A stretch of DNA of 64,000 nucleotides from Candidatus Methylomirabilota bacterium (lineage in GTDB: Bacteria > Methylomirabilota > Methylomirabilia > Rokubacteriales > CSP1-6): NCBI GenBank assembly GCA_046723475.1, contig JBKOUQ010000132.1, forward strand, positions 3,056 through 67,055, read 5' to 3'. Positions 50,137-54,265 of this stretch are shown piece by piece (the first letter of the stretch is position 1; every line of letters starts with the position of its first letter). A program made the translations under genes and the position numbers. The notes under the pieces were generated by a model. The model saw only the letters and a program-made list of their open reading frames with translations. It was not told where the DNA came from and ran no database searches.

Positions 50137-52284
50137 ATGACGGGGCCGCTGTTCAGCAACAACTGGTATCGCGTGGCGGACCTGCAGCCGCGGCTGCGCA
50201 GTCATGCCCGCATCGTCCGGCACCAGTACCGGGGCGAACCGTGGTACGTGCTGGAGGATCGCGCGAACCAGCGGTTCCACCGGTTCACGCCGCAGGCGTA
50301 TCTGTTCGTGGGGCTGATGGACGGCCAGCGGACGACACAGGAGCTGTGGGAGACGGCGTGCGAGCGTCTGGGCGACGACGCGCCCACGCAGGACGACGTC
50401 ATCCATCTGCTGGGGCAGCTGCACGCCGCCGACGTGCTGCAGTGCAACGTCTCGCCCGATGCCGCCGAGCTGTTCGAGCGGTACGAGAAGCAGCAGCGCC
50501 GCCGCTGGCAACAGCAGATCTTCAGCATCTTCTCGTGGCGATTCCCGCTGTTCGATCCCGAGCGATTGCTGCGCGCGACGCTGCCGCTCGTGCGGCCGCT
50601 GGTCGGCTGGCCGGGCATCGTGCTCTGGATCGTGGCCGTCGTGCCGGCCGCCGTGCTCGTCGGGATGTCGTGGACCGACCTGACGCACGATCTCGTGGGC
50701 CGTATGCTCGCGCCGCAGAATCTCGTCGTGCTGTGGCTCATCTTCCCGATCATCAAATCGCTGCACGAGCTCGGTCACGCGTACATGACGAAGGCCTTCG
50801 GCGGCGAGGTGCACGACATGGGCGTCATGCTGCTCGTCGTGACGCCGGTGCCGTACGTCGATGCGTCCGCGACGTCGGCGTTCCGCAACAAGTGGCATCG
50901 CGTGCTCGTGGGCGCCGCCGGCATGATCGTCGAGGTGTTCCTGGCCGCGCTGGCCACGTACGTGTGGGTCGCCGCCGAACCGGGCGTGCTACGCCTCGTG
51001 GCCTACAACACCATCCTCATCGCGGGCGTCTCGACGCTGCTCTTCAACGGCAACCCGCTGCTGCGCTTTGACGGTTACTACATCCTCGCCGACGCGCTCG
51101 AGATCCCGAATCTCCGGCAGCGCGCCAACGCGTATCTCGGCTTCCTCGGTGAGCGTTACGTCTTCGGGCGCCGCGACGCCGAGGTTCCGACCGCGACGCC
51201 GGGTGAGCGCTGGTGGTTCGTCGCGTACGCCGTCGCCTCCTTCGTGTACCGGATTCTCGTGGTCGTCGGCATCGTCATGTTCATCGGCGACCATTACTTC
51301 TGGCTCGCGGTCCTCTTCGCGCTGCTCACCGCCGTCGCGTGGATCGGCGTCCCCCTCGTGAAGGGCGTGCGCTTCGTCTTCCGCAGCCCCCGGCTGCGCA
51401 AAGTCCGCCTGCGTGCGCTCAGCACAACGGCCGTGGCCGTCGCCATCGTCGTCCTCGTGATCGGCGTGCTGCCCGTGCCCTATCGCAGCCTGGTCGAGGG
51501 CGTGGTGTGGATCCCCGAGGAAGCGTACGTCCGCGCCGGGACCGAAGGCTTCGTCGGAGAGGTGGTCGCGACACCGGGCGCGCCGGTGCGGCGGGGCGAT
51601 GTGCTGGTGTTGCTGCGCGACAGCGAGCTCTCGTCCCAGGTTGCGCAGCTCGCCGGCCGGGTGCGCGAGCTCGAAGCCCGCTACGCCGAGCAGCGTCCCG
51701 TCGACGTCGTGAAGGCGGCGATCATCCTCGAAGAATTGCGGTACGCGCAGGAGGCGTACGCGCGCGCCCGTGAGCGCGCGTCGGAGCTGACGGTACGCGC
51801 GCTCACCACCGGCTCGTTCGTCATCGCCGCGCCCGAGGATTTGCCGGGCCGCTTCGTCAAGAAGGGCGACCTGCTCGGCTACGTCGTGCAGCTCGACAGC
51901 GTCACCGTGCGCGCGGTGGTGCCGCAGGGCACGGTCGACCTCGTCCGCGAGCACACCCACGCCGTCCACGTGCGGCTGGCCGAGCGGCTGGAGCAGCCCG
52001 TGGACGCGCTCGTGCACCGCATCGTGCCCGGCGGCTCGGAGAAGCTGCCCGCGAGCGCGCTGGGCACCGAGGGCGGGGGCCCGATTCCGGTCGACCCGCG
52101 CGACCAGTACGGCACGACCGCGCTCCAGAAGGTGTTTCAGGTCGACGTCGACCTGCCCGCGCGTTCCGATCGCGTGAACGCCGGCGGGCGCGCCTACGTT
52201 CGGTTCGATCACGGCCGTGAGCCGCTGGCCCAGCAGTGGTACCACCAGGTGCGTCAGCTCTTCCTGTCGCGCTTCAATGTCTAG
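50137..52284 (+). CDS. PqqD/RRE-like domain - M50 (site-2 protease type) zinc metalloprotease - HlyD-like domain fusion
   Basis: 715 aa. HELGH at nt 50764-50778 lies inside a TM segment. Second M50 motif NPLLRFDGYYILAD. The N-terminal ~100 aa resemble PqqD (..FTPQAYLFVGLMDGQRTTQELWE..DDVIHLLGQLHAADVL). The C-terminal ~260 aa are lipoyl/coiled-coil/barrel-like (..GDVLVLLRDSELSSQVAQL..). Confidence 0.8.
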   Translation: MTGPLFSNNWYRVADLQPRLRSHARIVRHQYRGEPWYVLEDRANQRFHRFTPQAYLFVGLMDGQRTTQELWETACERLGDDAPTQDDVIHLLGQLHAADVLQCNVSPDAAELFERYEKQQRRRWQQQIFSIFSWRFPLFDPERLLRATLPLVRPLVGWPGIVLWIVAVVPAAVLVGMSWTDLTHDLVGRMLAPQNLVVLWLIFPIIKSLHELGHAYMTKAFGGEVHDMGVMLLVVTPVPYVDASATSAFRNKWHRVLVGAAGMIVEVFLAALATYVWVAAEPGVLRLVAYNTILIAGVSTLLFNGNPLLRFDGYYILADALEIPNLRQRANAYLGFLGERYVFGRRDAEVPTATPGERWWFVAYAVASFVYRILVVVGIVMFIGDHYFWLAVLFALLTAVAWIGVPLVKGVRFVFRSPRLRKVRLRALSTTAVAVAIVVLVIGVLPVPYRSLVEGVVWIPEEAYVRAGTEGFVGEVVATPGAPVRRGDVLVLLRDSELSSQVAQLAGRVRELEARYAEQRPVDVVKAAIILEELRYAQEAYARARERASELTVRALTTGSFVIAAPEDLPGRFVKKGDLLGYVVQLDSVTVRAVVPQGTVDLVREHTHAVHVRLAERLEQPVDALVHRIVPGGSEKLPASALGTEGGGPIPVDPRDQYGTTALQKVFQVDVDLPARSDRVNAGGRAYVRFDHGREPLAQQWYHQVRQLFLSRFNV

Positions 52285-54265
52285 ATCGGCCACGCTGCCC
52301 GAGACGCCGACCGGCGCGTATGCGGAGCGCCGCGTGCGGCCGCGGAGCGCGTTCGATCGCTTCGGCGACCGGGTGATGGCCCCGCTGCTGCGCCGGCGAC
52401 GCGCGTCGTGGCGGCGCTGGGCGGGCTTTCCGCGCCTCGTCGATGCGCAGGCGCAGGATCTCGCCGAGCGGGACGACGCCGCGCTGCGCGAGGCGGCCGA
52501 CGACGTGCGCGCGGCGCTCCGGCAGCGGCGCTTCGAACCGCCCGCCGTCGCGCGCGCGTTTGCCCTCGTGCGCGAGGTCGCCGCCCGCACCCTCGGCGAG
52601 CGGCACTTCGACGTCCAGCTCGTCGGCGGGCGCGTGCTGCTCGACGGCATGATCGCCGAGATGGAGACGGGTGAAGGCAAAACGCTGACCGCGACACTGG
52701 CCGCCAGCACCGCCGCGCTCGCCGGCATTCCGGTGCACGTCGTCACCGTCAACGACTATCTGGCCACGCGTGACGCGCAGTGGATGACGCCGATCTACCG
52801 CGCGCTCGGCGTCAGCGTCGGCGTCGTCGTGCACGGCATGGACAACGACGCGCGGCGCGCGGCCTATGCGGCCGACATCACCTACGTCACCAACAAGGAA
52901 ATCGCATTCGATTACCTGCGCGACCGGCTGGTCCTCGGCCAGCGCACGGGACGCATCGCGCTGCAGCTCGAGCGCCTCGCGGGCGATGACGCGCGCGCGC
53001 GGCGGCTCGTGCTGCGCGGGCTGCATTACGCCATCGTCGACGAGGCGGACAGCGTGCTGATCGACGAGGCCCGCACCCCGCTCATCATCTCAGGCGGCGG
53101 CCGCGACCGGGGCGAGCGTCGCGTGTTTTCGACCGCGCTCGCCCTCGCGGATCGGCTCGAGGCGGGGAGCGACTTCATCATCGATCCTCGCGACCGCGAG
53201 GTCCGTCTCACGGACGCGGGCGCCGCGCGTCTCGACGACGTCGCCCGTCCGCTCGGCGGCGTGTGGCGCGGCCGCGTGCGACGCGAAGAGCTCGTGCGCC
53301 AGGCACTCACGGCGCGTCACCTGTTTCATCGCGACCAGCACTACCTCGTGCACGACGATAAGGTGCAGATCGTCGACGAGTTCACCGGTCGCGTGATGGC
53401 CGATCGCTCGTGGGAGCATGGCCTGCACCAGCTCATCGAGGTGAAGGAAGCGTGCCCGGTGACGGCGCCGCATCAATCGCTTGCGCGGGTCAGTTATCAG
53501 CGATTCTTCACGCGGTACCTGCGCCTGGCCGGGATGACCGGCACCGCGCGCGAGGTTCGCGGGGAGCTCTGGTCCGTCTACCGGCTCGCGCTCGTCTCCA
53601 TTCCGACGAACCGGCGGATGCGCCGCACGCTCGAGCCGGACCGCATGTACGTGTCCGAGGGCGATCGCTGGGACGCCGTGGTCGACCGTGTGGTACGCGT
53701 GCACGAGTCCGGTCGGCCGATCCTGCTCGGCACACGCTCGGTGGCCGCGTCCGAGCACCTGAGCGGCCTGCTCGACCAGGCGGGGCTGGCCCACCGCGTG
53801 TTGAACGCGCGCCAGGACGCCGAGGAGGCGCAAATCGTCGCCGACGCCGGGCAGCGCGGCCGCATCACCGTCGCCACGAACATGGCCGGCCGCGGAACGG
53901 ACATCCGTCTTGGTCCCGGCGTGGGCGAGCTGGGCGGACTGCACGTCATCGCCACCGAGCGTCACGAGGCGCGCCGCATCGACCGGCAGCTCTTCGGCCG
54001 ATCCGGGCGGCAGGGTGAGCCCGGCAGCGCGGAGGCGATCCTGTCGCTGGAGGACGAGCTGCTTGCCCTGCACGGGCCGCGATGGCGACGCCTGGTGGCC
54101 GCGTTCGCGCGCCCCGATGGATCGGTGCCGACGTGGCTCGCGCGGCGGGTGGTGGCGTTGGCGCAAAAGGCCGCGGAGCGCTTGCACGCGCGGATGCGCG
54201 GCGATCTCTTGCGCGTGGACGAACAGCTCGAGTCCACGCTCGCATTTTCCGGACGGCCGGAGTGA
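52277..54265 (+). CDS. SecA-like ATPase, truncated paralogue type (motor domains only, 662 aa)
   Basis: AEMETGEGKTLTATL (Walker A), VHVVTVNDYLATRDA, ITYVTNKEIAFDYLRD, AIVDEADSVLIDEARTPLIISG (DEAD), TNMAGRGTDI, GGLHVIATERHEARRIDRQLFGRSGRQGEPGS. The ATG at 52277 overlaps the upstream gene by 8 nt. The C-terminal wing/CTL region seems absent. Confidence 0.85.
   Translation: MSRSATLPETPTGAYAERRVRPRSAFDRFGDRVMAPLLRRRRASWRRWAGFPRLVDAQAQDLAERDDAALREAADDVRAALRQRRFEPPAVARAFALVREVAARTLGERHFDVQLVGGRVLLDGMIAEMETGEGKTLTATLAASTAALAGIPVHVVTVNDYLATRDAQWMTPIYRALGVSVGVVVHGMDNDARRAAYAADITYVTNKEIAFDYLRDRLVLGQRTGRIALQLERLAGDDARARRLVLRGLHYAIVDEADSVLIDEARTPLIISGGGRDRGERRVFSTALALADRLEAGSDFIIDPRDREVRLTDAGAARLDDVARPLGGVWRGRVRREELVRQALTARHLFHRDQHYLVHDDKVQIVDEFTGRVMADRSWEHGLHQLIEVKEACPVTAPHQSLARVSYQRFFTRYLRLAGMTGTAREVRGELWSVYRLALVSIPTNRRMRRTLEPDRMYVSEGDRWDAVVDRVVRVHESGRPILLGTRSVAASEHLSGLLDQAGLAHRVLNARQDAEEAQIVADAGQRGRITVATNMAGRGTDIRLGPGVGELGGLHVIATERHEARRIDRQLFGRSGRQGEPGSAEAILSLEDELLALHGPRWRRLVAAFARPDGSVPTWLARRVVALAQKAAERLHARMRGDLLRVDEQLESTLAFSGRPE

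Follow-up and report, generated by a model that had tools for sequence, protein, structure and literature searches.

A gene on the plus strand of a 64,000-nucleotide (nt) stretch of DNA from a Candidatus Methylomirabilota bacterium (Rokubacteriales; CSP1-6; GenBank assembly GCA_046723475.1, contig JBKOUQ010000132.1, positions 3,056 to 67,055; the whole stretch is here called the window) encodes a SecA paralogue that is pared down to its motor core, the preprotein cross-linking domain (PPXD), and ~35 residues of the scaffold helix. The wing, the two-helix finger/IRA1 (intramolecular regulator of ATPase 1), and the C-terminal tail are absent. The gene lies in a row of five intact open reading frames (ORFs) and overlaps the end of a gene for a membrane metalloprotease fused to a HlyD-type adaptor. 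Based on domain content and gene neighborhoods, we give a probability of about 0.6 to the reading that the SecA-like protein is a cytoplasmic motor that uses ATP to move polypeptides through a type-I-like envelope exporter linked to TolC and lacking an ABC transporter. New in this analysis are the homology of the metalloprotease to leader peptidases of ribosomally synthesized and posttranslationally modified peptides (RiPPs) and the association of the gene row, here called the module, with giant proteins carrying an LEPR-XLL motif.

A SecA paralogue reduced to its motor core

All six SecA motifs quoted in the initial annotation (AEMETGEGKTL, VTVNDYLATRD, TNKEIAFDYLRD, VDEADSVLIDEARTPLIISG, TNMAGRGTDI, and ERHEARRIDRQLFGRSGRQG) occur in the 662-amino-acid (aa) translation. 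Coordinates below are positions in the window. Conservation figures come from an alignment of 69 SecA-like family sequences (A2), and structural features come from an AlphaFold2 (AF2) model with its predicted local distance difference test (pLDDT) scores.

52277..54265, plus strand: SecA-like ATPase ("secondary SecA_DEAD domain protein"), 662 aa (Pfam, NCBIfam, alignment, AF2, and Foldseek)
52313..52330, plus strand: N-terminal motif GAYPER (here GAYAER, aa 13 to 18), inside an N-terminal extension of ~30 aa
52412..53572, plus strand: nucleotide-binding domain 1 (NBD1), SecA_DEAD, aa 46 to 432, with Walker A GEGKT at aa 132 to 136 and DEAD at aa 255 to 258 (Pfam E = 7.6e-103)
52940-53005, plus strand: NBD1 insertion of ~19 aa (aa ~222 to 243) between TNKEIAFDYLRD and the DEAD box (gapped in Bacillus subtilis SecA; pLDDT, 54 to 55)
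53120..53440, plus strand: PPXD, aa 282 to 388 (Pfam PF01043, E = 1.2e-27)
53618..54106, plus strand: NBD2, aa ~448 to 610, with TNMAGRGTDI and motif VI (P-loop_SecA, E = 2.5e-56; B. subtilis alignment)
54131..54241, plus strand: lone long C-terminal helix, aa 619 to 655, equivalent to the N-terminal ~two-thirds of the SecA scaffold helix (AF2)
54239..54262, plus strand: C-terminal tail LAFSGRxE, aa 655 to 662, predicted to be disordered (A2 conservation; pLDDT of <50 for aa 653 to 662)

Residues 46 to 652 aligned (HMMER) with residues 17 to 604 of B. subtilis SecA, the match ending there at ~604 to 607. In domain terms the alignment is incomplete: NBD1, the PPXD, and NBD2 are kept, and the helical wing domain and the C-terminal linker are gone. 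Neither SecA_SW (PF07516) nor SEC-C (PF02810) was found with Pfam, even at an E value of ≤10, while the canonical SecA of Neptuniibacter, a positive control in the same run, matched both. The B. subtilis alignment also showed no VAR insertion in NBD2. The AF2 model, built from 69 family members (pLDDT, 83.8; predicted TM-score [pTM], 0.77), has a single helix (aa 619 to 655) after NBD2, followed by the disordered tail. The truncation after NBD2 proposed in the initial annotation thus holds for the wing and the C-terminal tail, but ~35 scaffold-helix residues remain according to both the model and the alignment. An N-terminal extension of ~100 aa had also been proposed; it is actually ~30 aa, because canonical SecA too has ~100 residues before Walker A, and the alignment begins at residue 46 of the query against residue 17 of SecA.

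The motor itself appears well preserved. Residues G132, E133, G134, K135, D255, E256, A257, and D258 are invariant in A2, as are the motif VI residues. The best Foldseek match was B. subtilis SecA (query-normalized TM-score [TMq], 0.78), and the E. coli fragment SecA-N68 was also among the matches. The protein is 40.5% identical to the canonical SecA of a congener over residues 28 to 678 of the latter, and it scored under the cut-offs of the housekeeping SecA models NF009538/TIGR00963 (638.8 versus 814 bits and 624.9 versus 800 bits). Three elements set the family apart from canonical SecA: the ~19-aa NBD1 insertion, which is family specific and has no counterpart in B. subtilis SecA; the GAYPER motif, with Y15 invariant and P16 conserved at ≥90%; and the C-terminal tail, with L655, A656, F657, G659, and E662 conserved at ≥90%. 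Loss of the parts that serve SecY, SecB, and lipid linking, together with the gain of conserved termini, fits docking to a different membrane partner.

An indexed word search returned hundreds of homologues of ~660 aa with 62 to 71% identity, mainly from Rokubacteria/Methylomirabilota and Tectomicrobia metagenomes. Among 50%-identity representatives, the best 150 matches listed (HMMER) were almost all 645 to 690 aa long. This uniform length among at least 150 representatives and the conserved C-terminal tail led us to reject a pseudogene or truncation artifact.

Coupling to an RRE-M50-HlyD gene

The gene immediately upstream had been read as an M50-HlyD protease. Both domains are there, and the same chain also carries a leader-binding PqqD/RRE-like domain.

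50137..52284, plus strand: fusion of an RRE (PqqD-like) domain, an M50 intramembrane metalloprotease, and a HlyD domain, 715 aa (NCBIfam, Pfam, and transmembrane prediction)
52277..52284, plus strand: 8-nt overlap ATGTCTAG, where the end of the M50-HlyD gene (final codons plus stop) contains the SecA-like start (sequence)

The protein has the M50 motifs HELGH (aa 210 to 214) and NPLLRFDGYY (aa 306 to 315) and ~6 to 7 hydrophobic segments between aa 151 and 445. Over aa 18 to 412 it matched the NCBIfam daptide_HExxH model with an E value of 3.6e-49, at a score under the cut-off of that model (NF041824; 167.9 versus 300 bits), and it matched YydH/LiaK with an E value of 3.6e-09. Among 30 family members, daptide_HExxH matched all 30 (best E = 5e-57), Peptidase_M50 matched 27, and PqqD matched 24; the M50 residues H210, E211, H214, N304, N306, P307, D312, and G313 are invariant. 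PqqD is a leader-recognition fold of RiPP pathways. Judged by these profile matches, the M50 protein is clearly homologous to RiPP leader peptidases, a relationship that is new relative to the 2015 paper on the family (see below). In the phylum sample described below, a related but separate RRE-M50 family, with open frames of 825 to 900 aa, matched our M50-HlyD profile only over positions ~17 to 550 and at 190 to 230 bits (for example, G125:C86:24266-25849, G124:C27:28136-29512, and G135:C18:298910-300388).

A search with the M50-HlyD profile against one genome per GTDB species yielded 254 relatives, and 80 of these loci were retrieved. Neighborhood counts refer to 85 loci and start/stop overlap counts to 78. 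The junction in the window, ttcaATGtcTAG, is as first annotated: the SecA-like ATG lies at 52277 and the stop of the upstream ORF (50137-52284) at 52282-52284, an overlap of 8 nt. The same −8 arrangement (ATGnnTAG/TGA/TAA) recurs in 48 of the 78 loci and in several phyla, with nearly all other loci at −11 to +35 nt, and translational coupling is therefore a conserved trait. No Shine-Dalgarno-like run was found in the 30 nt upstream of the SecA-like ATG. An alternative GTG start farther upstream, at 52217 (682 aa), was rejected, as the ATG at 52277 is the conserved −8 start of the 48 loci. Conservation of the overlap fits the proposed cotranslation of the two genes; the fixed stoichiometry proposed along with it was an overstatement, drawn from translational coupling.

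A conserved gene row

On the plus strand of the window, the row reads DUF3467, GAF-HlyD, RRE-M50-HlyD, SecA-like, and short HlyD. The three genes that complete it are as follows.

47813..48160, plus strand: DUF3467 small protein, 115 aa, an optional first gene of the module (PF11950, E = 9.3e-23)
48244..50133, plus strand: GAF-HlyD protein with cytoplasmic GAF domain(s), a transmembrane helix at aa 362 to 380, and a periplasmic adaptor domain (Pfam and NCBIfam)
54282..55094, plus strand: short periplasmic HlyD adaptor, 270 aa, with an N-terminal signal-like hydrophobic segment (HlyD_D23, E = 2.3e-17; HlyD_3, E = 2.3e-13)

GAF-HlyD matched GAF (3.9e-12), HlyD_3 (4.1e-15), HlyD_D23 (1.3e-13), and RND_mfp (1.4e-25), and the short HlyD gene starts with GTG preceded by GGAGG. 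HlyD_3/HlyD_D23 domains occur in three proteins of the window, and matches to the type_I_hlyD model were subthreshold. The order GAF-HlyD, M50-HlyD, SecA-like, short HlyD is kept in nearly all of ~80 loci; short SecA-like proteins do have conserved M50-HlyD neighbors. These loci come from Nitrospirota, Methylomirabilota, Gemmatimonadota, Alpha-, Beta-, and Gammaproteobacteria, Nitrospinota, Myxococcota, Planctomycetota, Acidobacteriota, and Bacteroidota. GAF-HlyD is present in 80 and the short HlyD in 72 of the 85 loci.

Clustering of flanking ORFs placed a TolC-type outer membrane efflux protein (OEP) gene after the short adaptor in 19 of the 85 loci, SapC genes in 11, and PilZ genes in 8; an OEP gene also adjoins the row on Methylosinus plasmid pMSC49a. 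The window has no TolC-type OEP gene adjacent to the row, and ~6 OEP genes lie elsewhere in the genome. No ABC, RND, or MFS transporter was found in the row in the window, and none is conserved in related loci. The clustered flanking ORFs included no conserved RiPP-modifying enzyme. No secY2 or asp gene was found among the neighbors in the window or the 85 loci; the search for secY2 did not extend to other parts of the genome. SapC-family genes within or beside the module include those at L074 5242-6039, L090 13170-14027, and L128 7872-8693. SapC has been described in Campylobacter fetus as part of the type I secretion operon for the S-layer.

DUF3467 homologues adjoin the module in 43 of the 85 loci, and the family is absent from five module-bearing genomes. 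The AF2 model of DUF3467 is of low confidence (pLDDT, 64.5), with four strands and a helix; among homologues, the N terminus is variable. In genome G032, a second DUF3467 gene lies ~0.7 kb upstream of an LEPR-XLL ORF (1,479-aa open frame) and far from the module (C1:1002267-1003265, minus strand). The position of this second copy beside an LEPR-XLL gene suggests that DUF3467 belongs to the cargo side and not to the machine. A role for DUF3467 as a SecB-like chaperone was not supported: Foldseek with this low-confidence model against the PDB gave nothing below an E value of 0.7, and a profile search of PDB sequences gave nothing meaningful.

Elsewhere in the window, a 77-aa ORF (47426-47659, plus strand) with a weak homeodomain-like helix-turn-helix match (HTH_32, E = 0.005) lies between a response-regulator gene and DUF3467 and may be an IS21-like transposase remnant at the module edge. 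A complete AcrB-type RND pump gene (14584-17892, plus strand; ACR_tran, E = 4e-250) lies 30 kb upstream and is unrelated to the module. The other large ORFs of the window encode a fused aldolase/short-chain dehydrogenase and a DNA ligase or have no Pfam match.

LEPR-XLL giant proteins as likely cargo

On plasmids of three cultured Alphaproteobacteria (Methylosinus sp. C49, Mesorhizobium ciceri R30, and Pseudosulfitobacter DSM 107133), genes of 26.5, 31.5, and 38.7 kb directly precede the row. All three giant products match NF012209 ("LEPR-XLL") at aa 36 to 68, after a basic stretch. The motif (fE.LEPRlLLSAD) also lies 40 to 120 aa from the start of large module-adjacent ORFs at 10 of the 85 loci, with the N terminus contained in the flanks. 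RTX-type giant ORFs were found upstream on the same strand at 20 of the 85 loci, compared to none of 331 windows taken from the genome that contains our gene.

The motif follows the module across genomes as well. LEPR-XLL was present in 10 of 12 module-bearing genomes versus none of 8 module-less relatives and none of 14 controls; most occurrences adjoined the module, and the open frames that carry the motif ran from 1,300 to 15,167 aa. In a phylum sample of 251 genomes, seven had both module and motif, eight the module only, two the motif only, and 234 neither (Fisher P = 1.9e-8, uncorrected for phylogeny). Both motif-only genomes are <75% complete and come from a genus in which the module occurs. 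The complete genome of Neptuniibacter (G031) carries two full copies of the module, each downstream of its own LEPR-XLL giant.

C1:519389 and C1:1836631: LEPR-XLL giants of G031, with open frames of 8,190 and 11,870 aa
C1:547968 and C1:1876465: SecA-like genes of G031

From these sequence associations, LEPR-XLL giant surface proteins are likely to be the cargo of the module. The source assembly, a metagenome-assembled genome (MAG) that is 87.5% complete in 309 contigs (the shortest at least 3.2 kb), contained neither the LEPR-XLL motif, under strict or relaxed definitions, nor an ORF with ≥3 GGxGxD repeats. Such a giant could be missed because giant repeat genes usually go unassembled in short-read MAGs. 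Congener G007 has an LEPR-XLL ORF on another contig. In our organism, the module either is an orphan or has a cargo gene that escaped assembly. In literature searches, the term "LEPR-XLL" turned up only in two unrelated papers.

Family phylogeny and the housekeeping secA

The initial annotation had asked whether short SecA-like proteins form a clade of their own. A maximum likelihood tree was built from 76 short SecA-like proteins and 20 canonical ones, the latter drawn partly from the same genomes and including that of B. subtilis; in it, the two groups were parted by one branch of length 1.04 with a Shimodaira-Hasegawa-like approximate likelihood ratio test (SH-aLRT) support of 100. Within the short group, the topology cuts across phyla and conflicts with taxonomy, indicating horizontal transfer. 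Within the host genus, the module is present in only 2 of 12 genomes.

Database names of these proteins vary. Short SecA-like proteins are called "prepilin peptidase" in RefSeq/GenBank at L126 (8809-10725), at L128 (8686-10710), and in P0020, a name that seems to be an annotation error passed on from record to record; further entries read "DEAD/DEAH box helicase" or "preprotein translocase subunit SecA."

No canonical secA was found in the source assembly by six-frame Pfam search or by tblastn with a congener SecA, and the SecA-like gene is its sole SecA_DEAD gene. Ten of 11 sampled congeners gave a canonical-type secA match (E values of about 1e-132 to 1e-134), and the 11th (G003) gave a cut match that we interpret as canonical. 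The housekeeping secA of our organism most probably sits in an assembly gap, because base 1 of contig C134 corresponds to a point ~1.4 kb downstream of the secA end in the syntenic region of G007 (relative locus L118, 7943-10708 and 12317-18000). The possibility raised initially that this is the single secA of the genome is thus formally true of the assembly and is explained by the gap; we reject the reading that it is the sole SecA of the organism on the evidence of that contig break. Canonical SecA (open frames of 858 to 959 aa) and the short form occur together in 9 of 10 other carrier genomes, and in the complete Neptuniibacter genome two short copies accompany a single canonical one. The sole secA of the source assembly is not the housekeeping gene and should not be scored as that gene when completeness or essential genes are checked.

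Proposed mechanism and alternative explanations

Beyond the role of the motor, we put forward, at slightly less than even odds, a distinct and so far unnumbered secretion pathway by which diderm bacteria would export the largest of bacterial proteins and in which a leader is read by the RRE domain and clipped by the M50 protease, and the chain is moved N to C by a motor-only SecA via three HlyD proteins to TolC, with neither an ABC transporter nor SecYEG. In such a pathway, the RRE domain of the M50-HlyD protein would bind the N-terminal LEPR-XLL leader in the cytoplasm, and the intramembrane HExxH M50 protease would remove it. The SecA-like protein would grip the chain in its PPXD clamp and push it by ATP hydrolysis, possibly docked through the conserved GAYPER (N-terminal) and LAFSGRxE (C-terminal) motifs. 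The three HlyD-type adaptor domains would form a periplasmic duct to a TolC-type outer channel, and the GAF domain would gate the system. We infer the existence of a single machine, translocation powered by the SecA-like protein, leader reading by the RRE domain, cutting by the M50 protease, and the direction of transport.

Several points weigh against this scheme. We know of no M50/S2P (site-2 protease) enzyme that acts as a protein-conducting channel, and the row contains no established translocon. The loss of IRA1 might leave the ATPase unregulated or go with another role, such as that of an unfoldase, and an exporter built on it would need a different regulator. LEPR-XLL is absent from 8 of the 15 module-bearing genomes in the phylum sample, our own included, although these are fragmented MAGs, where giant repeat genes are poorly assembled, and the Fisher test takes no account of shared ancestry. 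Foldseek and the PDB profile search did not support a SecB-like fold for DUF3467, and our literature searches found no experiments on any family member. In Methylobacterium extorquens AM1, only the GAF gene of the locus was detectably expressed in exponential phase (PMC4452313).

One alternative, which we consider unlikely, is that the module carries out sensing and regulated proteolysis: the GAF domain would sense a ligand, the SecA-like protein would unfold or feed a membrane or cytoplasmic substrate, and the M50 protease would cleave it, as in S2P signaling. M50/S2P enzymes classically perform regulated intramembrane proteolysis, a GAF sensor is fused to one of the adaptors, and PilZ and cyclase genes recur nearby. 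However, regulated proteolysis gives no role to three HlyD domains and an often-adjacent TolC gene, and the strong adjacency to extracellular-type giants points to export.

It is also improbable, in our estimate, that the protein is an accessory, SecA2-like motor that works at the housekeeping SecYEG on special substrates, with the M50-HlyD protein and the adaptors acting after export. In solved SecA-SecY complexes, the two-helix finger/IRA1 and the wing are the channel-facing part of SecA, and it is these that the SecA-like protein lacks. The motor and the PPXD clamp are kept, and the NCBIfam SecA2 scores are strong, yet all are under their cut-offs (TIGR03714, 495.8/930 bits; TIGR04221, 482.5/725; TIGR04397, 571/1085; and NF012136, 432.5/1100). 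Kamneva et al. placed the clade beside actinobacterial SecA2 (PMC4452313), whereas the row includes no secY2 or asp gene and the SecA-like gene is tightly coupled to a gene whose product has a cytoplasmic RRE domain.

A third possibility, to which we give similarly little credence, is that what the module matures and exports is a small peptide or protein, either RiPP-like or DUF3467 itself, and that the giants are neighbors for some other reason. The RRE-M50 part has its nearest matches in the daptide and YydH epipeptide leader peptidases, and DUF3467 is the only small conserved module neighbor in the window, where a giant is absent. On the other hand, the row has no conserved RiPP-modifying enzyme, DUF3467 is missing from five module-bearing genomes and has a variable N terminus that is not leader-like, and the second DUF3467 gene of G032, beside an LEPR-XLL gene, fits a cargo helper better than a cargo.

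Finally, it is very unlikely that the module of our organism is a horizontally acquired, idle orphan without cargo, whatever the family does elsewhere: only 2 of 12 genus genomes carry it, the weak IS21-like helix-turn-helix stub (47426-47659, E = 0.005) lies just upstream, the LEPR-XLL motif is missing from the assembly, and the short-SecA tree is at odds with taxonomy, but all five ORFs are intact, with catalytic residues kept and the coupling overlap preserved, an 87.5%-complete assembly in 309 contigs could simply miss a giant repeat gene, and congener G007 has an LEPR-XLL ORF, on another contig.

Comparison with known systems

An exporter driven by the SecA-like protein would share features with several known systems. 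Type I secretion systems (HlyB-HlyD-TolC and LapB-LapC-LapE) likewise use HlyD-type membrane fusion proteins, and TolC is adjacent to the module in 19 loci, with giant RTX/cadherin/Ig-repeat proteins and SapC encoded alongside. They differ in that the module has no ABC transporter, a SecA-derived ATPase, three adaptors rather than one, and an RRE-bearing membrane M50 protease; moreover, the candidate signal is N-terminal (LEPR-XLL) rather than C-terminal. Peptidase-containing ABC transporters (CvaAB-TolC) and RiPP leader peptidases (NF041824 and NF058609) resemble the M50-HlyD protein in that leader recognition, cleavage, and export would be combined in one membrane protein, and the daptide protease is homologous over aa 18 to 412, with HExxH and NPxxxxDG kept. 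Here, in contrast, the peptidase is fused to HlyD and is of the M50 rather than the C39 type, there is no ABC domain, and the presumed substrates are thousands of residues long.

SecA2 proteins are similarly second SecA paralogues with altered C-terminal domains, but they keep the scaffold domain and two-helix finger, and their partner is SecY or SecY2 rather than an M50-HlyD protein; solved SecA2 chains among PDB sequence matches are 778 to 786 aa long. E. coli SecA-N68 (PDB 5k9t) and the isolated DEAD motor (3bxz) have nearly the same NBD1-PPXD-NBD2 arrangement as the SecA-like protein (Foldseek E = 2e-49; target-normalized TM-score [TMt], 0.70). SecA-N68 is reported to be a deregulated ATPase unable to translocate. 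It is also an engineered fragment, whereas the natural protein adds ~35 scaffold residues, conserved termini, and the 19-aa NBD1 insertion. SecA_DEAD and PPXD domains without scaffold or wing have been reported inside giant proteins of Omnitrophota and Actinobacteria, where they are suspected to help export (bioRxiv 10.1101/2023.11.21.568195). In those proteins, the motor is built into the giant and falls into a long-branched clade apart; in our case, it is a separate protein of ~660 aa encoded in an adaptor/protease operon.

The closest precedent is the in silico study of Kamneva, Poudel, and Ward (2015, PLoS One, PMC4452313), who described "secondary SecA_DEAD domain proteins" that have lost the wing-scaffold region. 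The neighbors in their loci were Peptidase_M50/HlyD, GAF/HlyD, HlyD/Biotin_lipoyl, and sometimes OEP genes, for example, M. extorquens AM1 META1p2399-2402, and the proteins formed a clade apart from canonical SecA with a patchy distribution suggesting horizontal transfer (PMC4452313). They proposed that the SecA_DEAD ATPase replaces the ABC transporter in a type I-like system, with the M50 protein perhaps the pore, and stated that the role was completely unknown (PMC4452313). Wing-scaffold loss, M50/HlyD, GAF/HlyD, and HlyD neighbors, and a separate clade all recur in our data. We regard the family as the same one, based on architecture, gene order, and shared taxa (Nitrospira, Proteobacteria, and Planctomycetes). 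The initial annotation had contrasted the M50/HlyD partnership with the SecY or SecY2 partners of known SecA2 proteins; that arrangement has been in print since 2015 (PMC4452313), and the SecA-like/M50-HlyD finding is therefore a rediscovery, in a new phylum. The paper does not cover Methylomirabilota/Rokubacteria or Gemmatimonadota, nor does it contain the PqqD/RRE domain, DUF3467, the start/stop overlap, RTX or LEPR-XLL neighbors, or a cargo (PMC4452313). Our literature searches on SecA, HlyD, M50, PqqD, DUF3467, and GAF returned only this paper on the system and no follow-up.

Implications

The current RefSeq names of short SecA-like proteins fit none of them. The family merits interest as part of a candidate exporter of giant proteins, one that would be leader guided and SecA powered and would have no ABC transporter. 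If this is true, a motor derived from SecA has been co-opted away from the Sec translocon to drive a TolC-linked exporter, which would be a second solution, beside ABC transporters, for one-step secretion, and the module would be the first candidate export route for proteins of 8,000 to 15,000 residues that carry the orphan LEPR-XLL tag.

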